Source of the DNA: Candidatus Zambryskibacteria bacterium CG_4_9_14_3_um_filter_40_16
GTDB taxonomy: Bacteria; Patescibacteriota; Minisyncoccia; Phycocordibacterales; Zambryskibacteraceae
Direction: 5' to 3'
Length of the DNA stretch: 25,925 bases
Assembly (NCBI GenBank): GCA_002791475.1
Contig: PFXE01000015.1
Span: 1 to 25,925, forward strand
Of the stretch, positions 4,245 through 16,195 are shown piece after piece (position 1 is the first letter of the stretch; every line of letters begins with the position of its first letter). Position numbers and translations under genes: made by a program. Below the pieces are notes generated by a model. That model searched no databases, was not told the DNA's origin, and saw nothing but the letters and a program-made list of their open reading frames with translations.

Positions 4245-4305
4245 GTGGTAGAGCAACGCTTTTGTAAAGCGAAGGTCCTCGGTTCAAATCCGAGAGGCGG
4301 CTCCA
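4231..4305 (+). tRNA. tRNA-Thr (anticodon TGT), CCA encoded
   Basis: Acceptor GCCGCCT/AGGCGGC; D arm GCTC/GAGC; anticodon loop TTTGTAA (TGT at 4263-4265); T arm CTCGG-TTCAAAT-CCGAG; ends TCCA. Confidence 0.97.
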
Positions 4306-4307
4306 TT

Positions 4308-4337
4308 AAAAATATCCCGTGGATACGGGGTATTTTT
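4308..4337. terminator. Intrinsic terminator after tRNA-Thr
   Basis: AAAAATATCCCGT-GGAT-ACGGGGTATTTTT. Confidence 0.8.
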
Positions 4338-4370
4338 AATGGAGCCTTCTCTGATATACTTGTTACAATT

Positions 4371-5600
4371 ATGGGTAAAGACACCGTATTAAAATTTCCA
4401 AAAGGGTTTTTTTGGGGCGCCTCAACCTCCTCATTCCAAGTTGAGGGTGGAATTACAGGTACGGATTGGGAAAGTGCCGCTGAAAAAGGTTTGGTTCCGA
4501 AAATTGGCAAAGCTGCTGACCACTACAATCGGTACGACCAAGATTTTGATATTGCTAAGTCGCTCGGACACAATGCACATCGTTTCTCTATTGAGTGGTC
4601 CAGGATCGAACCCGAAGAAGGTAAATTTAACCACAATGAGATTGAACACTACCGCAATGTCATTAAGGCTTTAAGAGCCCGCAACATTGAACCATTCATA
4701 ACTCTTTGGCACTTCACCTTGCCACTGTGGTTTTCAGAAACCGGTGGTTTTGAACGCAAGGACGCACCGGAGATTTTTGCCCGTTATTGTTCTTTTGTGG
4801 TAGATAGTCTAAGCAACATTTGTACTCATTTCTCGACCATTAATGAGCCCAATGTGTTTGCAAGTCATGGCTGGCTCTATGGCGCGTGGCCGCCGTTTAA
4901 ACGGGGCAAGTTTCTATGGATAAAATTTGGTAAACCAGATGGCACTTGGAAGTCGGCACAAACTCTCTCTTTTTCCAATACGCTTATGTACTTTAAGGTC
5001 ACAAATAATCTAGTCAGAGCACACAATGAATCATATGTAGCGATTAAGAAAACTTCGCCACAGGTTAATGTCAGTGTTGCAAAACATGTGCACGCATTTG
5101 ATTCCAACTGGAACCCTTTCAACAAAATACTAGCCAAAATAGCCGCGTATCTACAAAGTGGAAGGTTTATGAACGGCATTAGAGGCCACTTCGATTCTAT
5201 CGGGCTGAATTATTATCGGTACACCAAATTCGGGGATAGGGAAGTTTATCCAAAAAGTGACATGGGATGGAATGTTAATCCGGAAAAGATAGAACTTGCT
5301 CTTAAATATTTGGCACGCTATAAGAAACCTATCTTTATTTCTGAAGCCGGAGTGGCTGATGCTCTAGATAAAATCCGAGCAGAATACATAAAAAAACAAG
5401 TTGAAGGTACGTGGAGAGCCTTGCAAACTGGAGTGGATGTGCGTGGACATATGTACTGGTCACTCTTGGATAACTATGAGTTGGCTTTGGGATATGAAAA
5501 GAGATTTGGCTTGGTTGAAATTAATTATGAAACCCTTGAAAGAAAAATTCGCCCGTCCGCATTTGTATATAAACAGATAGCGGAAAATAATGGGCTATAA
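4371..5600 (+). CDS. Glycoside hydrolase family 1 (beta-glucosidase/galactosidase-like), no signal peptide
   Basis: FPKGFFWGASTSSFQVEG, HRFSIEWSRIEP, TLWHFTLP, TINEP (acid/base), FISEAG (nucleophile), YWSLLDNYE, RFGLV. Start moved to ATG 4371 because the longer ORF overlaps the tRNA; TG-A-TATACT at 4352-4360. Confidence 0.9.
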   Translation: MGKDTVLKFPKGFFWGASTSSFQVEGGITGTDWESAAEKGLVPKIGKAADHYNRYDQDFDIAKSLGHNAHRFSIEWSRIEPEEGKFNHNEIEHYRNVIKALRARNIEPFITLWHFTLPLWFSETGGFERKDAPEIFARYCSFVVDSLSNICTHFSTINEPNVFASHGWLYGAWPPFKRGKFLWIKFGKPDGTWKSAQTLSFSNTLMYFKVTNNLVRAHNESYVAIKKTSPQVNVSVAKHVHAFDSNWNPFNKILAKIAAYLQSGRFMNGIRGHFDSIGLNYYRYTKFGDREVYPKSDMGWNVNPEKIELALKYLARYKKPIFISEAGVADALDKIRAEYIKKQVEGTWRALQTGVDVRGHMYWSLLDNYELALGYEKRFGLVEINYETLERKIRPSAFVYKQIAENNGL

Positions 5601-5607
5601 TTGATTC

Positions 5608-6504
5608 ATGTCAACGGCGCTTCTCTCAATCTTTTTTGTGGTAATCGGGCAATTCCTAAATGCCTCCATTGTTTTAATAGACAAATACATAGTTACTAAG
5701 ACGACAGTTTCTAAGCCGGCCGTGTATGCTTTCTATGTTGGTATAATATCTGGAGTGGTTATTGCCCTTCTTCCTTTGGGCATTATTGAGTTTCCCAGTG
5801 CCACGGTTTTGGGTCTGTCCGTTCTTTTGGGATTAATATTCATTTTGTCTATCATACTGCTCTTCACGGCCTTAAAAGCCGCCAATGCCACCGATGTTGT
5901 TGCGTGGCTTACCGCATTTTCTACCATATCCACCTTTCTATTAAGTGGATTACTTTTAAATGAATCTTTGCCCGGCTCTTTTCCCTTCGCTCTCGTTTTT
6001 TTCATTATTGGCGCCGTAATGGTCGGCCATTTTCGCTTTAACAGAAAATCTTTTTTATTGGTGATTATATCGGGGATTTTGTTTGGTCTTTCTGCTGTTT
6101 TAATAAAAATTTTATTTCAACACACCACATTTTGGAATGGATTTTTTTGGTCAAGAATGGGAAATGTCTTTGGCGCGCTGATTCTTTTGAGCTTCTCACA
6201 AATTAGATTAGGATTAGTCAATACTTCAAAATCAGTGGGTCATAAAGCTTCATTTCTTATAATTCTAAACAGAGTTCTTGGTGGAGTGGCGTTTTTAAGT
6301 ATTCTTTACGCAATTCGACTGGGTTCGGTATCAATAGCCAACGCTCTTGGCTCTTTGCAATTCGTATTTGTATTTTTAATGGTGTTTTTGTTAAGGCACA
6401 AAATACCCGATTTGTTTCATCATGAATTTAGACCTGGACACATCGCTCATAAAATAGTCTCTATAGTATTTATTATCACGGGCTTTTTTGTTTTGTTCTT
6501 ATGA
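5608..6504 (+). CDS. EamA/DMT-family membrane transporter
   Basis: ~298 aa, about 10 hydrophobic helices in two repeats; ends GSVSIANALGSLQFVFVFL, typical of DMT/EamA. Confidence 0.7.
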   Translation: MSTALLSIFFVVIGQFLNASIVLIDKYIVTKTTVSKPAVYAFYVGIISGVVIALLPLGIIEFPSATVLGLSVLLGLIFILSIILLFTALKAANATDVVAWLTAFSTISTFLLSGLLLNESLPGSFPFALVFFIIGAVMVGHFRFNRKSFLLVIISGILFGLSAVLIKILFQHTTFWNGFFWSRMGNVFGALILLSFSQIRLGLVNTSKSVGHKASFLIILNRVLGGVAFLSILYAIRLGSVSIANALGSLQFVFVFLMVFLLRHKIPDLFHHEFRPGHIAHKIVSIVFIITGFFVLFL

Positions 6505-7508
6505 ACCATTTCAAAAAAATATTAAAAATAATAGCGATTATCGCTATCACTTTGGTGGTGATTTTTCTAGGGCTTTCCGCGAAAAAGGACCCTGACCAAA
6601 TTTTTTATGGCGTTTCATTTAGCAAATTTCATTCCGACGAACTAAAGCTGCCATGGAAAGATGTTTATAAAGCCATACTTGATGATTTGGGCGTGAGAAG
6701 ATTTCGCCTCTCGGCACATTGGCCGATAACAGAGCCCGAAAGAGGGAATTATAATTTTTCAGAATTGGATTACCAAGTTGAAGAAGCTCAAAAAAGGAAT
6801 GCCGAGGTTATTTTGGTAGTAGGAAGACGAGCTCCGGGATGGCCGGAATGCCATGAACCTCAATGGGCGACACAGCTACCATGGGAAGAGAGAAAAGAAG
6901 CAATTCTTTCTTACGTGGAGGCGACAGTTAATCATTATAAGGGCTATGAAAATATAAAGTATTGGCAAGTGGAGAATGAGCCGTTTCTTTCGGTTTTTGC
7001 AAAAGAGCAGTGCGGTGATTTTGATGAAGACTTTTTCAAAGAGGAAGTGTCTTTGGTAAAGAAACTGGACCCATCAAGAAATATTTTGGTAACTGATAGC
7101 GGAAACTTGGGTCTTTGGGCTAATCCATGGCGCTCTGGAGATATTTTTGGCACAAGTGTTTACATATACCTTTGGAATCCAACGATAGGACAAGTGAAGA
7201 CTGTATACCTGCCGTCTTTTTATAAAGCAAAGGCAAATTTAATGGAATTAATTTTTGGAAAAAAGAAAAGTATTTTGATTGAACTTTCTACCGAACCGTG
7301 GTTGTTGGCACCCATAGTTGACTCCCCCTTAGATGTTCAAATTTCCAGGATGGACATAGAAAAATTTAATAGCATAATTTCTTTCGCCGAAGGTACGGGT
7401 TTTGACGAGCAGTATCTTTGGGGGGCGGAATGGTGGTATTGGATGAAAGATAGGGGTCACCCGGAATATTGGGCTAGAGGAAAAGAGATTTTTTCAAATA
7501 GTAGGTAG
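6501..7508 (+). CDS. Membrane-anchored clan GH-A glycoside hydrolase (GH5/GH35/GH42-like TIM barrel)
   Basis: N-terminal signal anchor; YGVSFS, RFRLSAHW, WQVENEPF (acid/base NEP), IELSTEPW (likely nucleophile), YLWGAEWW. ATGA overlap with the EamA gene. Confidence 0.7.
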   Translation: MNHFKKILKIIAIIAITLVVIFLGLSAKKDPDQIFYGVSFSKFHSDELKLPWKDVYKAILDDLGVRRFRLSAHWPITEPERGNYNFSELDYQVEEAQKRNAEVILVVGRRAPGWPECHEPQWATQLPWEERKEAILSYVEATVNHYKGYENIKYWQVENEPFLSVFAKEQCGDFDEDFFKEEVSLVKKLDPSRNILVTDSGNLGLWANPWRSGDIFGTSVYIYLWNPTIGQVKTVYLPSFYKAKANLMELIFGKKKSILIELSTEPWLLAPIVDSPLDVQISRMDIEKFNSIISFAEGTGFDEQYLWGAEWWYWMKDRGHPEYWARGKEIFSNSR

Positions 7509-7572
7509 ACAGCCCTTCTAATCTAATTGGTGATAACAAGAATAGTTTGATAGAGTGGCTACTTTAAACACA

Positions 7573-9105
7573 ATGGACTATAAGGATACAGAATATTTTA
7601 AAGTTGGTAGGGCGTCGGATCTCCAAGGTGGGGACAGGTTCCTGTATCGGATGTTAGAAATAATGCCCGGATTTTTGTCTTGGTCCACCATTCTTGGCAC
7701 AATATTTTTGTCCGCCTTTTTCCCCACAGCCGCCGCATATTTCATTATCTCATTTGATTTGTACTGGCTTTTGAAGACCGCATATCTTTCTGTGCACCTA
7801 AGGCATAACTGGAAAAGAATCAAATATAATCTTTCTGTGGATTGGTCTCTGATGATATCAAAAATGAAATATGAACATATTTATCACATGGTTATATTGC
7901 CTTTCTATAAAGAACCGCAAGATGTTATAGAAGAAAGTATTAAGTCTCTTGTGGCGTCGCAGTACGATAAGAAAAAAATGATAATCATTCTTGCCAGAGA
8001 AGAGAGGGCGGGAGACCAATCCGAAAAAACCGCAGAAATAATAAGAAAAAAATATGGAAATGATTTCGGATATTTTTTGGTAACCGCGCATAAAGAAGGA
8101 GTGGCGGGTGAAATGGCAGGAAAGGGTTCCAACATTTCTTTTGCCGCTGAAATGGCGAGAACAGAAATTTTGGATAAGAGTGCTATTCCATATAAAGATG
8201 TAATAGTTTCAGCGTTTGATATAGATACAGTAGCATACAAACAATTTTTTCTTTGTTTAACTTGGCATTTTCTTACCTCTCCAAATCCACTCAAAACATC
8301 TTTTCAACCCGTTCCTTTTTACAACAACAATATCTGGGATGCGCCCGCATTGTCTAGAGTAGCCGCCGGTTCTAGTACTTTTTGGCAAATGATGCAACAG
8401 GAGAGACCCGAAAAATTGGCGACTTTCTCATCACACTCTGTCAGTTTCCAGACACTTTTTGAAGTTGGTTATTGGCAAAAAAATATTGTTTCGGAAGATT
8501 CCAGAATCTTTTGGAACCTTTTTATGGCTCAAAATGCCGATTACACGGTTACTCCACTTTCTTATCCGGTATCTATGGACGCCAATGTCAGTCACTCATG
8601 GTGGCAAACCGCTATAAATGTTTATAAACAGAATAGGAGGTGGTCATGGGGAGTTGAAAATGTTCCGTATTTAATTTTTGGGTCCATAAAAAACAAAAAA
8701 ATTCCTCTTTGGAAGAAAATCAAAGTGATTTTTGTTCAAACGGAAGGATTCTGGTCTCTCGCCACCAATCCCATATTAATTTTTATACTGGGGTGGTTGC
8801 CGGTTATTTTGGGTGGAGCAAGCTTTAATAAAACAGTTTTGTCTTATAATTTACCCTTTTTAACTCGCAATATAATGATAGTCGCAATGTTGGGCTTAAT
8901 CCTGTCTGGTATAATATTCATATCCTTTTTACCTGAAAGACCAAAACACAGAAGCAAATATTCAAGAATATTAATGGTTTTTCAATGGATTTTGGTGCCC
9001 ATAACCATAACAGTATTTGGCGCTATCCCCGGGTTGGAAGCGCAAACCCGATTACTTTTTGGGAAATATATGGGGTTTTGGGTTACCCCTAAACACAGAA
9101 CTTAA
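7573..9105 (+). CDS. Processive GT2 membrane glycosyltransferase (cellulose-synthase-like)
   Basis: N- and C-terminal TM helices; ILPFYKE, AGKGSN, AFDID (DxD), SED, QNRRW (QxxRW). ATG 7573 preferred over GTG 7555 because TG-A-TAGAGT at 7548-7556 overlaps the GTG. Confidence 0.8.
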   Translation: MDYKDTEYFKVGRASDLQGGDRFLYRMLEIMPGFLSWSTILGTIFLSAFFPTAAAYFIISFDLYWLLKTAYLSVHLRHNWKRIKYNLSVDWSLMISKMKYEHIYHMVILPFYKEPQDVIEESIKSLVASQYDKKKMIIILAREERAGDQSEKTAEIIRKKYGNDFGYFLVTAHKEGVAGEMAGKGSNISFAAEMARTEILDKSAIPYKDVIVSAFDIDTVAYKQFFLCLTWHFLTSPNPLKTSFQPVPFYNNNIWDAPALSRVAAGSSTFWQMMQQERPEKLATFSSHSVSFQTLFEVGYWQKNIVSEDSRIFWNLFMAQNADYTVTPLSYPVSMDANVSHSWWQTAINVYKQNRRWSWGVENVPYLIFGSIKNKKIPLWKKIKVIFVQTEGFWSLATNPILIFILGWLPVILGGASFNKTVLSYNLPFLTRNIMIVAMLGLILSGIIFISFLPERPKHRSKYSRILMVFQWILVPITITVFGAIPGLEAQTRLLFGKYMGFWVTPKHRT

Positions 9106-10177: not shown

Positions 10178-10912
10178 ATGTCAGAAGAGGGTCATATTCA
10201 TCCAATTAGTCAAATAATAAGTAACACCGAAGCCATTTTTAGAGAAATGGGCTTTGCCGTTGCAAGCGGTCCAGAGATGGAAACCGAGTATTACAATTTT
10301 GATGCGCTTAATATACCCACGCATCATCCAGCAAGAGATATGTGGGATACATTTTGGATAAAACCGGAGAATGCCAGAAAGTTACTAAGAACGCACACCT
10401 CACCCGTTCAGGTTAGATATGCGGAAACACACAAACCGCCAATAAGGATAATTGTTCCAGGAAAAACTTTTAGACATGAAGCAACTGATGCCACCCACGA
10501 AGCTCAATTTTTTCAACTAGAAGGGTTAATGATAGAAGAAGATGTAACGCTTGCTAATCTTAAATTTGTGTTGACAAACTATTTTGAAAAATTATTTGAT
10601 ACCCAAACAAACATTAGATTTCGCCCTAGTTTTTTCCCATTTGTTGAGCCGGGAGTTGAAATTGATATGTCTTGTTTTAAGTGTGATGGTTCAGGTAAGG
10701 ACTGCAATACTTGCAGAGGGACGGGGTGGATTGAAATTATGGGGGCCGGAATGGTACACCCAAAGGTTTTGCAAGCAATGAAAATTGACCCCAACAAATA
10801 TAAGGGTTTCGCCTTCGGAGGAGGGGTAGATCGTATTGCTATGATTAAATACGGCATAGACGATATCCGATCTTTTTATTCCGGAGATCTTCGGGTGATA
10901 AATCAATTCTAA
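10178..10912 (+). CDS. pheS: Phenylalanine-tRNA ligase alpha subunit (catalytic core only)
   Basis: HPARDMWDTF, LLRTHTSPVQ, GKTFRHE..DATH..QFFQLEG, FRPSFFPFVEPG, CxxC..CxxC insert, GWIEIMGAGMVHP, GFAFGGGVDR. TATAAT at 10163-10168. Confidence 0.97.
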   Translation: MSEEGHIHPISQIISNTEAIFREMGFAVASGPEMETEYYNFDALNIPTHHPARDMWDTFWIKPENARKLLRTHTSPVQVRYAETHKPPIRIIVPGKTFRHEATDATHEAQFFQLEGLMIEEDVTLANLKFVLTNYFEKLFDTQTNIRFRPSFFPFVEPGVEIDMSCFKCDGSGKDCNTCRGTGWIEIMGAGMVHPKVLQAMKIDPNKYKGFAFGGGVDRIAMIKYGIDDIRSFYSGDLRVINQF

Positions 10913-10915
10913 ATT

Positions 10916-13339
10916 ATGCGCGTATCTTATAATTGGTTAAAAACATATTTTGAATCAGAAATCCCATCTCCGGAAAAAATCGGTAATCTTTTGACACAGC
11001 ATTCTTTTGAGGTTGAATCAATTACACAATTTGAAGAAGATTTTGTTCTTGATATAAAAGTTTTACCGGACCGTTCCCATGACTGCCTCTCACATTTTGG
11101 TATAGCGAAAGAAGTTTCTCTGCTTACTTTTGTGCCAATCAAGAAAGAGTTTGTTAATATTGTTCCAATAAGCGCGCCGGAATCAAACATTCTCCAGGTT
11201 GAAATTGAAGACCCCAAACTCTGCCCAAGATTCACCGCTGTCGTTATTGAAAATGTTGAATTGAGGGAAAGCCCTGGGTGGCTCAAGGGGGCTTTAAAAA
11301 GTTTGGGACAAAAATCCATCAATAACATAGTGGATGCCACCAATTACATAATGTATTCATTGGGCCAGCCTCTACACGCATATGATATGGCCAAACTTAA
11401 AGATGAAAGCGGTAACTATCTATTGAGAGCCAGGGTGGCTAGAAAATCAGAAAAAGTAAAAACATTGGATGGGAAGGAGTATGAAATGGATGAAAATATG
11501 CAAGTCATTTCTGACGGTATGACGGGAGATAGCGCTTTAGGTATAGCCGGCATAAAAGGGGGGGAAGCAACTAAAATTGATAAAAATACAAAAAGTATAA
11601 TTATAGAATCCGCCAACTTTCATCCGGTGAATATTAGAAAGACCGCCACAAAGTTAGGACTTCGCACAGACGCATCCATAAGATTTGGAAACGAAATATC
11701 CCCAGAGCTGACCCTGCCCGCGATATTTGAAGCTTCTCGTCTTGTTGTAAAGATTGCAGGGACTGAAAAGACCGCGATAGAAGGAATTTGTGATAAATAT
11801 CCCAGACGAACGTCATTATACAAGGTTGGTTTTTCTTTGTCAGAAGTTCAATCAACTTTGGGTATTGATATTTCCCAAAACGAGATTCAATCAATACTAA
11901 ACAGGAGGGGGTATGAGTGGGAGGAGGTTTTTCCCAGAGAGAAGATTATGAACACCGCCGAGGGGTTGGTGGGTGTCCCGTATAAATACGGCTCAAGCAT
12001 TCTTTCTGACGCGCCTACATCGTTTGATTGTTCGTCTCTATCTTCTTATTTGTATATTCAATCAGGCATTTCTTTGCCTAGAATATCCGTGGACCAATAT
12101 GTTTTTACCGACGAAGTAAAAGAACAAGACGCTCGCCCCGGAGATTTGGTTTTTGCCAATACGGGTAAGGTGGTTAACACTAGCGGTTTGTATTACTCAA
12201 AAGTTCTAGATAAAAACATAGAGGAGGTTCCAATAAGGAGCAAATCAGTAGAATTTATTCCCGGTACGGAAGTAGAGGGTGGAATTGACCATGTTGGGAT
12301 TTATTTTGGAAACGGAGAAGTTTTACACAGTACAAAAGACGAAGGGGGCGTGATAAAAGAAAATTTATTAGATTCAAAAAATTTTAAAAACTTTAGAGGA
12401 TTCAGGGCTATAAAATCTTTAGATGAAAAACGTTTTGTTGTTACCATTCCGCCAGAGAGGCTTGATTTAAGAATAAAAGAAGACCTGATTGAGGAAGTTG
12501 GAAGAATATACGGATATGAAAACATTCCAACCAAAAAAATAAAAAACAATCAAATAAAACCCGAAGTGAACAAGGACGAGTATTATGGCAATATAATAAG
12601 AGGTATTCTGATTTCAAAAGGTTTTTCTGAAATCATTTCATATACTTTTGTGAAAAAAGGAGAGATAGAACTTATAAATCCATTGGCGGGAGACAAGAAG
12701 TTTTTGCGAAACAATTTAACTGATGGTATTAAGGAATCTTTGGATTTTAATATTGGAAATGCTCTTCTCTTGGGTTTAGAACAAATTAAGGTATTTGAAA
12801 TAGGAAATGTTTTCCCAAAATCCGGAGAAGTCAAACACCTTGCTTTTGGAATAAAGAATCCGAAAGGCTCTAAAAAGGAAAAATCTGAGGATAAAGATAT
12901 TGAAGAAACCGTCAATTTGTTAGAAAAAGAATTGGCCATAAAAACCGATTTTAAAATTAATAACTCAATTGCTGAATGCGATTGGAGCAGTATTCTCGCT
13001 CAATTAGAAGATGTTGAAATCGCCCATATTCCCAAAAAATTAAGTCAAGCAAGATACAAAAAACCGTCAACATACCCCTTTGTTTTAAGAGATATCGCCA
13101 TACTTCACAACAAAGAATTGTTAAAAGAAAAATTAACGGAAGTAATTAAAGATGCGGGTGGCGATACTTTAAAGATAGTTAAATTATTTGATGAGTTTTC
13201 TCCGGATAAGGAAAATATTTCAAGCGCTTTTCACCTTGTTTTCGTTTCAGACACCAAAACGTTAACAGACGATGAGGTAAACGAAACAATGGCGTTGATA
13301 GAAGAACAGATAAGGAATAATGGTTGGAAAGTAAGATGA
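10916..13339 (+). CDS. pheT: Phenylalanine-tRNA ligase beta subunit with an internal NlpC/P60 domain and no B2 OB-fold
   Basis: B1 MRVSYNWL...PDRSHDCLSHFGIAKE; B3/4 INNIVDATNY..GQPLHAYD, ESANF, RTDASIRF; B5 IPPERLDL..EDLIEEVGRIYGY; B8 YPFVLRDIA...TLTDDEV. Confidence 0.95.
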   Translation: MRVSYNWLKTYFESEIPSPEKIGNLLTQHSFEVESITQFEEDFVLDIKVLPDRSHDCLSHFGIAKEVSLLTFVPIKKEFVNIVPISAPESNILQVEIEDPKLCPRFTAVVIENVELRESPGWLKGALKSLGQKSINNIVDATNYIMYSLGQPLHAYDMAKLKDESGNYLLRARVARKSEKVKTLDGKEYEMDENMQVISDGMTGDSALGIAGIKGGEATKIDKNTKSIIIESANFHPVNIRKTATKLGLRTDASIRFGNEISPELTLPAIFEASRLVVKIAGTEKTAIEGICDKYPRRTSLYKVGFSLSEVQSTLGIDISQNEIQSILNRRGYEWEEVFPREKIMNTAEGLVGVPYKYGSSILSDAPTSFDCSSLSSYLYIQSGISLPRISVDQYVFTDEVKEQDARPGDLVFANTGKVVNTSGLYYSKVLDKNIEEVPIRSKSVEFIPGTEVEGGIDHVGIYFGNGEVLHSTKDEGGVIKENLLDSKNFKNFRGFRAIKSLDEKRFVVTIPPERLDLRIKEDLIEEVGRIYGYENIPTKKIKNNQIKPEVNKDEYYGNIIRGILISKGFSEIISYTFVKKGEIELINPLAGDKKFLRNNLTDGIKESLDFNIGNALLLGLEQIKVFEIGNVFPKSGEVKHLAFGIKNPKGSKKEKSEDKDIEETVNLLEKELAIKTDFKINNSIAECDWSSILAQLEDVEIAHIPKKLSQARYKKPSTYPFVLRDIAILHNKELLKEKLTEVIKDAGGDTLKIVKLFDEFSPDKENISSAFHLVFVSDTKTLTDDEVNETMALIEEQIRNNGWKVR
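11930..12424 (+). other. NlpC/P60 (C40) cysteine peptidase domain inserted in PheT (aa ~339-503)
   Basis: LVGVPYKYG, FDCSSL (Cys372, nt 12029), SLPRISVDQ, RPGDLVF, DHVGIYFGNGEVLHS (His459 nt 12290, His471 nt 12326). Confidence 0.9.
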
Positions 13340-13959
13340 AAATGCAAGTACCATATTATTCGCAATATAAAGATGTGGAGAAAGAAGAATGGAAGATTCT
13401 TGGAAAAGCGCGCGCGTGTACGGCCGCGTGTCTTAAGATGGTCTTTGAATATTTCAAAGTTGATAATTGTCCAACGGTTGATGAAATTTTTGAAGAGAGC
13501 TTAATTATCACTCAAGATATGCTGGAAAAAAAATTAATTACCGAATTAACAATTACTCATGGCATTACACACGACGTAATTACACTGGTGTCGCACAATC
13601 ACGGCGTGCCATCTTTTAAAGAAGAATTTAAGTCCGTTAAGATTGATACTGCAAATAAAACATTTTCTCCAAGCAAATATTCACAAAAGATTTTTGACTT
13701 TGGTATCAAAGAAATTTTTAATACATTAAAGGGTGGGGGATTAGTTTTGACATCTGTTCTCCCCGGCTTATCAAATGGGCAATCTTTCCATACGGTACTT
13801 TTGGTCGGTTTTGAAGAAGCAGATGGAAAAATAAAGGGATTTTACTACCATGACCCAGATTCTATTGACGGCACTCTTTCCAATCAATACTTAGACCTAA
13901 AGATGTTTGATAAATATTGGAGAAAACAAGCTATTTTTTTCCCTTTTTTGGGTAAATAA
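13336..13959 (+). CDS. C39-like (papain-fold) cysteine peptidase, no signal peptide
   Basis: VPYYSQ (oxyanion Gln), ACTAACLKMV (Cys), SFHTVLLVGF (His), YYHDP (Asp). ATG 13336 overlaps the pheT TGA (ATGA). Confidence 0.75.
   Translation: MKMQVPYYSQYKDVEKEEWKILGKARACTAACLKMVFEYFKVDNCPTVDEIFEESLIITQDMLEKKLITELTITHGITHDVITLVSHNHGVPSFKEEFKSVKIDTANKTFSPSKYSQKIFDFGIKEIFNTLKGGGLVLTSVLPGLSNGQSFHTVLLVGFEEADGKIKGFYYHDPDSIDGTLSNQYLDLKMFDKYWRKQAIFFPFLGK

Positions 13960-14092: not shown

Positions 14093-16195
<2,103 letters not shown>

Follow-up and report, generated by a model that had tools for sequence, protein, structure and literature searches.

The 25,925-nucleotide stretch of DNA analyzed here (the window), positions 1 to 25,925 of contig PFXE01000015.1 from Candidatus Zambryskibacteria bacterium CG_4_9_14_3_um_filter_40_16, encodes a phenylalanyl-tRNA synthetase (PheRS) beta subunit, PheT, in which an entire NlpC/P60 cysteine peptidase domain (family C40; hereafter P60) is nested within a hairpin of the B5 domain. 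Judging from its motifs, predicted fold, and pattern of conservation, the insert is apparently a catalytically competent NlpC/P60 cysteine amidase. The same module persists in relatives that have lost PheT altogether. We tentatively favor, with a confidence just short of even, the reading that this is a cytoplasmic amidase module in its own right, with gamma-D-Glu peptides of the murein type as substrates and PheT as the carrier.

The host gene, pheT (10916..13339; all features described below are on the + strand of the window), is a single open frame of 807 aa that matches the equivalog model TIGR00472 (pheT_bact) with 418.2 bits against a cut-off of 402.65. Pfam recognizes the B3_4 editing domain (residues 103-282, 11222..11761; E 7.5e-55), the catalytic-like module (CLM) B6/B7 (tRNA_synthFbeta, residues 537-680, 12524..12955; E 2.4e-11), and the FDX-ACB anticodon-binding domain B8 (residues 718-803, 13067..13324; E 2.3e-15). 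Equivalents of Thermus thermophilus T249, N250, H261, and E334, residues of the editing site, are present in the alignment; with these residues intact, the idea that P60 replaces a decayed editing site was rejected. One B3_4 match makes this the sole PheT detected in its own assembly (388 kb, ~66% complete), and the single locus also led us to reject a "PheT-related" paralog standing beside a normal PheT.

The B5 domain is divided into an N-terminal half (approximately residues 300-338, 11813..11929), delimited from the AlphaFold2 (AF2) model described below and from alignment to insert-free PheTs and ending in the strand YEWEEV, and a C-terminal half (residues 506-536, 12431..12523) that bears the acidic motif D517, D523, E526, and E527. 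Pfam likewise reports B5 as two stretches flanking NLPC_P60, with B5 profile positions 32-67 corresponding to PheT residues 498-534. The four acidic residues align with T. thermophilus D452, D458, E461, and E462, which we take to be Mg2+ ligands facing PheS. Between the halves, residues 339-505 (11930..12430) constitute the P60 domain. In the context of PheT, Pfam NLPC_P60 scores 68.5 bits (cut-off 23; E 5.5e-19; residues 353-428 and a second stretch), the excised insert matches PF00877 with 74.8 bits (E 6e-21), and the NCBIfam p60/RipB/MepS-type models match it as well. The insert falls between T. thermophilus PheT residues ~430 and 441, and three insert-free PheTs of the same order (602-645 aa) align cleanly on both sides of it, with a short turn at the insertion point.

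The AF2 model of PheT residues 283-540, built with 111 homologs, has a mean predicted local distance difference test (pLDDT) score of 94 and a predicted template modeling (pTM) score of 0.89. The N-terminal half of B5 is modeled as strand-helix-helix-strand (model residues 20-56; pLDDT 96-98), and B5 strands directly flank the P60 domain on both sides. Because the pTM score is high, the model suggests that B5 and P60 are packed as one rigid unit. The insert has a papain-like alpha+beta fold, with a helix starting around Cys372 (model residues 90-100), and the top match of Foldseek against the PDB was 7cfl (probability 1.00, TMt 0.89, root mean square deviation 1.7 A). The top matches, Acd24020 (7cfl), Acd33800 (9ubf), LytE, MepS, CwlO, and SagA, are all peptidoglycan DL-endopeptidases.

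Much of this arrangement had been proposed in a preliminary description made from the DNA letters, and the analysis bore it out. The motifs quoted there were located at PheT residues 327 (ILNRRGYEWEEV), 353 (GVPYKYG), 370 (FDCSS), 387 (LPRISVDQ), 408 (PGDLVF), 459 (HVGIYFGNGEVLH, with the first His), 506 (RFVVTIPPERLDL), and 523 (DLIEEVGRIYGY), and the proposed triad Cys372-His459-His471, with its H-x11-H spacing, was confirmed as C, H, and H. The frame is continuous as claimed, with no stop codon interrupting 11930-12424 (residues 339-503). The two halves of B5 are likewise intact, and the insertion site is indeed a hairpin turn, across which insert-free PheTs align and on either side of which the model places B5 strands. 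The description of a tolerated, intact domain insertion rather than debris agrees with the profile matches, the conserved triad, the high-confidence fold, and the wide distribution.

A homolog search with PheT residues 300-540 matched 3021 proteins. The best 120 of these, whose named sources are mostly Patescibacteria, Paceibacterota, Zambryskibacteria, and Yonathbacteria, all have the architecture B3_4 + P60 + B5 + FDX-ACB singled out in the preliminary description, and nearly all also have the CLM. In public databases they are annotated as "PheT-related," as "C40 family peptidase," or as hypothetical. Statistics on nested orthologs were computed from 118 of the best 120 matches. The codons of Cys372 in the FDCSS motif (12029..12031) and His459 in the DHVGIY motif (12290..12292) specify residues present in 118/118 nested and 86/86 stand-alone forms (the latter described below), and the third triad residue, His471 (12326..12328), is present in 112/118 and 81/86, respectively; the triad is thus not eroded in orthologs. 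The P60-type motifs PY..G, FDCSS, PR.S..Q, GD, and H.G.Y are near-invariant among the nested orthologs, Y356, R389, D393, Q394, and G409-D410 are conserved too, and the B5 residues D517, D523, E526, and E527 are 95-100% conserved in these forms. Mean column conservation is 0.65 for the insert, compared with 0.62 for B3_4 and 0.49 for the CLM.

The extra segment that the preliminary description saw within P60 is also real. It is a beta-rich sub-insert (residues 416-456, 12161..12283), an addition particular to PheT-nested P60 domains, in which AF2 predicts strands with pLDDT 82-90. Its length differs between lineages: the D410-to-H459 spacer is short (29-33 aa) in 76 of the 118 sequences and long (43-48 aa) in 39, that of the window measuring 48.

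These distributions also bear on whether the fusion could be an artifact. An assembly chimera or frameshift joining a P60 gene into pheT is effectively refuted: the best 120 of the 3021 matches, drawn from NCBI, JGI, ENA, and Logan assemblies, all show the architecture, the same junctions recur in 73/301 sampled genomes, and the modeled B5 folds around the insert with a pLDDT of 94 while base composition, including G+C content, shows no break at the junctions. An intein was considered as well. An intein would have a HINT fold, a nucleophilic residue at its N-terminal junction, and His-Asn plus Cys/Ser/Thr at its C-terminal one; the junctions here, EEV/FPRE and LDEK/RFVV, lack splicing motifs, the fold is papain-like, and this candidate was rejected. 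Anti-phage defense was likewise discarded, PADLOC returning no match for PheT, the insert, or the neighboring C39 protein.

Within the order, an even sample of 301 genomes of ~0.5-1.3 Mb each contained a B3_4-bearing PheT in 231 and a homolog of the insert in 85, of which 73 had it in PheT-length frames with the same junctions. Insert presence varies within genera. In genus g339, an insert-free and an insert-bearing PheT are 57% identical, and two insert-bearing PheTs are 59% identical; this equal backbone divergence implies precise loss or gain of the insert on a vertically inherited gene. The P60 insert is therefore dispensable for PheRS. Distances for insert and backbone are correlated (Mantel r 0.56, 0/999 permutations as high), leaving cassette-like horizontal swapping within the order unsupported, and divergence is slightly slower in the insert than in the backbone. 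A phylum-wide sample added ~12 further genomes with P60 in PheTs of 922-970 aa. Three of these long PheTs (922-935 aa) were aligned, and they keep the B2 domain, have a full-length PheS partner, and carry P60 in the same hairpin. Reduced PheS and PheT, as found in the order, are thus not a prerequisite for the insertion.

The module also exists without PheT. All four other sampled genomes of the window's family lack PheT. At the same PEGA ... gyrB locus, they encode a monomeric PheRS of 382 aa that combines the PheS core with FDX-ACB, and the gene for it is overlapped by 4 nt by a B5-P60 gene whose product is 42-50% identical to window PheT residues 317-532. Four more assemblies have a monomeric PheRS gene followed by B5-P60, with a C39_2 peptidase gene next in three of them, for eight contigs in all. 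Stand-alone B5-P60 proteins are 196-241 aa long and form 86 clusters in the protein database. Two of the four Mg2+-ligand positions are replaced in them (D523 by N, K, or A; E526 by K) while the triad is kept, implying that selection acts on P60 catalysis and not on contact with PheS.

This pattern weighs on the proposal that P60 is not an enzyme here at all and is instead a ligand-binding, structural, or regulatory appendage (e.g., a muropeptide sensor or a tRNA or partner contact) or a neutral passenger. Close relatives do without the insert, as might be expected of such a domain, and the fold matches include RipD (4jxb), an NlpC/P60 domain that has reportedly lost its nucleophile and is non-catalytic. 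However, a domain that was only carried along or only bound a ligand should have lost its nucleophile, as RipD has, and all 204 sequences retain the catalytic Cys and His, including the stand-alone forms, in which neighboring B5 residues decay. We regard a non-enzymatic role as very unlikely.

The P60 domain is cytoplasmic. Pfam output and inspection of the N-terminus revealed no signal peptide, lipobox, LysM, SH3b, or SLH on PheT, and the protein has no transmembrane segment or hydrophobic N-terminus (maximum Kyte-Doolittle hydropathy over 19 residues, 1.26), with the neighboring PEGA protein serving as a positive control. A surface autolysin, one of several roles floated in the preliminary description, fits poorly because no export signal or transmembrane segment was found. 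Known P60-type DL-endopeptidases (MEROPS C40: Clostridioides difficile Acd24020, 7cfl, and Acd33800, 9ubf; Bacillus subtilis LytE and CwlO; Escherichia coli MepS/Spr) share the fold of the insert (TMt 0.82-0.89), the motif set, the Cys-His-His triad, and the H-x11-H spacing, with sequence E values of 1e-12 to 1e-20. In contrast to the PheT domain, which sits without an export signal inside a cytoplasmic synthetase, these enzymes are exported and have signal peptides, lipoboxes, or wall-binding domains, and they lack the extra 17-35 aa hairpin that precedes the catalytic His in PheT. The functional analogy that we favor is with YkfC of B. subtilis and Bacillus cereus (3h41) and dipeptidyl-peptidase VI (3npf, 4r0k), which are also among the NlpC/P60 fold matches. 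YkfC-type enzymes act inside the cell on recycled stem peptides, cleaving gamma-D-Glu-diamino-acid bonds, and two N-terminal SH3b domains select substrates with a free L-Ala N-terminus. The sequence match of 3h41 to the insert is weak (E 9e-4), no SH3b match was found in PheT, and the partner gene is a C39_2 peptidase here, whereas for YkfC it is the ykfABCD set.

That partner is encoded immediately downstream. The Peptidase_C39_2 gene (13336..13959; 207 aa) begins with an ATG that overlaps the pheT stop codon as ATGA, and its product matches PF13529 with 30.3 bits against a cut-off of 24. Across 77 homologs, Q10, C28, and H152 never vary, and at least 90% retain D173; all named homologs come from Parcubacteria/Paceibacteria. 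The protein lacks a transmembrane segment or signal-like N-terminus (again with the PEGA protein as a positive control), and its AF2 model (pLDDT 94) is papain-like, the top fold match being the C39-like peptidase 3erv of Bacillus anthracis, followed by double-glycine leader peptidases, staphopain, and phytochelatin synthase. Of the 59 C39-positive genomes in the order sample, 52 are also P60-positive (odds ratio 47, uncorrected for shared ancestry), and in ~45 of the 52, by coordinates read by eye, the C39 gene follows in the same orientation at a distance of at most 2 kb. Of the seven C39-positive, P60-negative exceptions, G420 has a contig break at the C39 gene.

Genome G506 shows the module in a free-standing setting. 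It has an ordinary, insert-free PheS/PheT pair at the gyrB locus and, separately, a 393-aa B5-P60-C39 fusion in which both nucleophiles are present. The fusion, known from one lineage and one database cluster (P0289), is encoded among genes for a MraY-like Glycos_transf_4 protein, a D-Ala-D-Ala carboxypeptidase (S11), a DUF218 protein, and a CAP protein.

The linkage could be taken to mean that P60 and C39_2 are a general cytoplasmic pair that breaks down imported oligopeptides or processes particular proteins, scavenging amino acids in an auxotroph with no special tie to murein. Neither of these papain-clan cysteine peptidases has an export signal, their genes are linked and in one case fused, the leader-peptide proteases, staphopain, and phytochelatin synthase among the C39 fold neighbors hydrolyze peptides or proteins and are not wall enzymes, and the sub-insert could have altered the specificity of P60. 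On the other hand, the DL-endopeptidase motifs of P60 are almost invariant, its closest relatives outside PheT proteins are wall hydrolases that bear SH3b or SLH domains, and the one free-standing context is a cell-wall gene cluster. We consider a general role of this kind unlikely. A second NlpC/P60 protein is encoded in the window's own genome on contig C33 (L011:1309-2316); it is open-ended (>336 aa), has a C-terminal peptidase M23-like motif (HxH), and shows no obvious signal peptide.

In the murein-peptide reading that we tentatively favor, the B5 halves and P60 would form one rigid unit projecting from PheT. This unit would be a self-contained cytoplasmic enzyme, separate from the machinery of aminoacylation and editing, and would usually act alongside the C39_2 peptidase encoded next door. 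Homology and the single free-standing gene context make small gamma-D-glutamyl peptides, such as murein stem peptides or their precursors, the most likely class of substrates, which would be salvaged or trimmed in the cytoplasm. PheT may be merely a carrier, a constitutively expressed scaffold.

Several observations weigh against this proposal. The case for murein peptides as substrates depends on homology and a single gene neighborhood. No C39 gene was detected in 33 of the 85 P60-positive genomes, although single-sequence detection of this fast-evolving family probably undercounts (the C39 gene of G337, for example, reached only E 1e-4). P60 lacks the SH3b domains that give YkfC-type enzymes their specificity, and the extra hairpin of 17-35 aa lies by the active-site strands in all nested copies and could alter specificity. 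The coupling to PheRS genes, through the 4-nt overlap, outlasts PheT itself and could signify a real functional tie to PheRS; the carrier idea leaves this persistence unexplained. Presence of a MurI-like gene does not differ between P60-positive (8/85) and P60-negative (27/216) genomes (p 0.55), and in the absence of such an association in the order sample, substitution of the module for glutamate racemase was rejected. Full-length glutamate racemase (TIGR00067-like) was detectable in only ~35 of the 301 genomes.

The coupling to PheRS genes invites an alternative in which P60, positioned on PheRS, attacks the activated ester of aminoacyl- or peptidyl-tRNA; in variants of the idea, it deacylates D- or non-cognate aminoacyl-tRNA(Phe) or forms a Phe-thioester that passes Phe to an amine acceptor. 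Across deeply diverged lineages, P60 is nested in PheT or encoded with a 4-nt overlap to a PheRS gene, and the same B5 hairpin hosts it in the second class of enzymes with full-size PheS and PheT. Ester chemistry is established in the NlpC/P60 superfamily, whose LRAT/PLAAT members act on lipid esters via acyl transfer. A search of the 301 order genomes for canonical D-aminoacyl-tRNA deacylase (DTD; PF02580) found none (a control search found it in 8/14 reference genomes), such that a deacylase role may stand vacant. Yet the module occurs in only ~28% of an order in which DTD is absent from 301/301, and is therefore no general replacement; the B3_4 editing residues are intact and leave no evident gap to fill. 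Stand-alone copies lose the PheS-interface Mg2+ ligands, the G506 module is located far from PheRS among cell-wall genes, and both sequence and fold are those of a canonical P60-type DL-endopeptidase, not of the permuted LRAT type. We judge both the general idea and its variants to be quite unlikely. A related proposal, that P60 acts on PheRS's own product, either clearing D- or aberrant aminoacyl-tRNA or taking Phe from Phe-tRNA as a thioester and, with C39_2, transferring or trimming it on a murein-type peptide, strikes us as improbable; if true, it would link translation directly, through an enzyme, to the metabolism of cell-wall peptides. Taken together, the comparative data favor an autonomous murein-peptide-type amidase module over the new editing or self-processing roles that had been suggested at the outset.

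Aminoacyl-tRNA synthetases have been studied as intensively as almost any enzymes, and the hydrolytic domains known to be inserted in them are editing sites. The CP1 domain of Leu/Ile/ValRS, INS of ProRS, and B3/4 of PheT itself are, like P60, hydrolytic domains inserted in or appended to a synthetase; however, they edit mis-acylated tRNA and are near-universal in their lineages, whereas P60 is a papain-clan peptidase that is patchy within genera and survives without the synthetase. The preliminary description knew of no characterized example, and this agrees with our literature searches: no description of a PheT-nested P60 was found in the literature searchable as full text or in a recent review of Patescibacteria that was probed for it.

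Patescibacteria are ultra-small bacteria, and in thousands of uncultured representatives a cell-wall-type papain-clan peptidase, its triad under selection, is lodged in a small domain of a synthetase that is essential. The module has outlived the rest of the PheT subunit, which points to a cytoplasmic activity worth keeping in genomes of ~0.5-1.3 Mb and offers a natural example of domain-in-domain insertion followed by excision. If a murein peptide is the substrate, the module bears on the supply of D-Glu and diamino acids in wall-building, biosynthetically poor episymbionts. Cys372 of the nested domain is a defined biochemical target.

The module also marks the plasticity of PheRS in this order, in which heterotetrameric, truncated, and monomeric forms occur among closely related genomes. 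No B3_4-containing PheT was detected in 70/301 genomes of the order, or in 63/270 when only genomes that were at least 90% complete were counted. Many relatives instead have a bacterial monomeric PheRS of mitochondrial type (tRNA-synt_2d + FDX-ACB, 381-391 aa), for example at L013:3279-4427, L014:4738-5886, L034:2856-4004, and L035:2829-4004, with no counterpart in the window. A monomeric enzyme consisting of the PheS core and B8 has been listed only for mitochondria (PMC3275996), and the same chimera is found here in relatives of the window's own family and order; the bacterial gene is followed by a leftover B5-P60 gene, whereas mitochondria have no such gene. Yet another architecture occurs in G660 (L033:2993-4219), where a 408-aa PheT without B3/4 and most of B5 stands beside a 241-aa PheS and a 222-aa P60 gene product is encoded separately on another contig.

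Within the window, the genes on the + strand are ordered PEGA-domain membrane protein, pheS, pheT, C39_2, and gyrB (14096..16195), the last being a conserved downstream anchor; the order PEGA - PheRS - (P60) - (C39) - gyrB recurs in relatives. The pheS gene (10178..10912; 244 aa) ends in TAA, 3 nt before the pheT ATG, and Pfam tRNA-synt_2d (E 2e-97) spans the whole protein, which consists of the catalytic core and lacks the N-terminal coiled-coil. PheT likewise has no PF01588 match to B2 (tRNA_bind/EMAP-like): its residue 39 aligns to T. thermophilus residue 150, and T. thermophilus residues ~37-149 have no counterpart. The PheS coiled-coil and PheT B2 are tRNA-contacting parts of the classical bacterial PheRS, and their losses (at 10178-10912 and 10916-11029, respectively) are a general feature of the order that does not depend on the P60 insert. 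The order's insert-free PheTs share the B2 deletion, and the insert class with B2 and full-length PheS carries P60 regardless; both facts count against P60 compensating for the loss of B2 or the coiled-coil, and this candidate was rejected. Farther upstream, glycoside-hydrolase-like genes (4245-7508) are separated from the PEGA-domain gene by a 516-aa open reading frame without a Pfam match (7555-9105).

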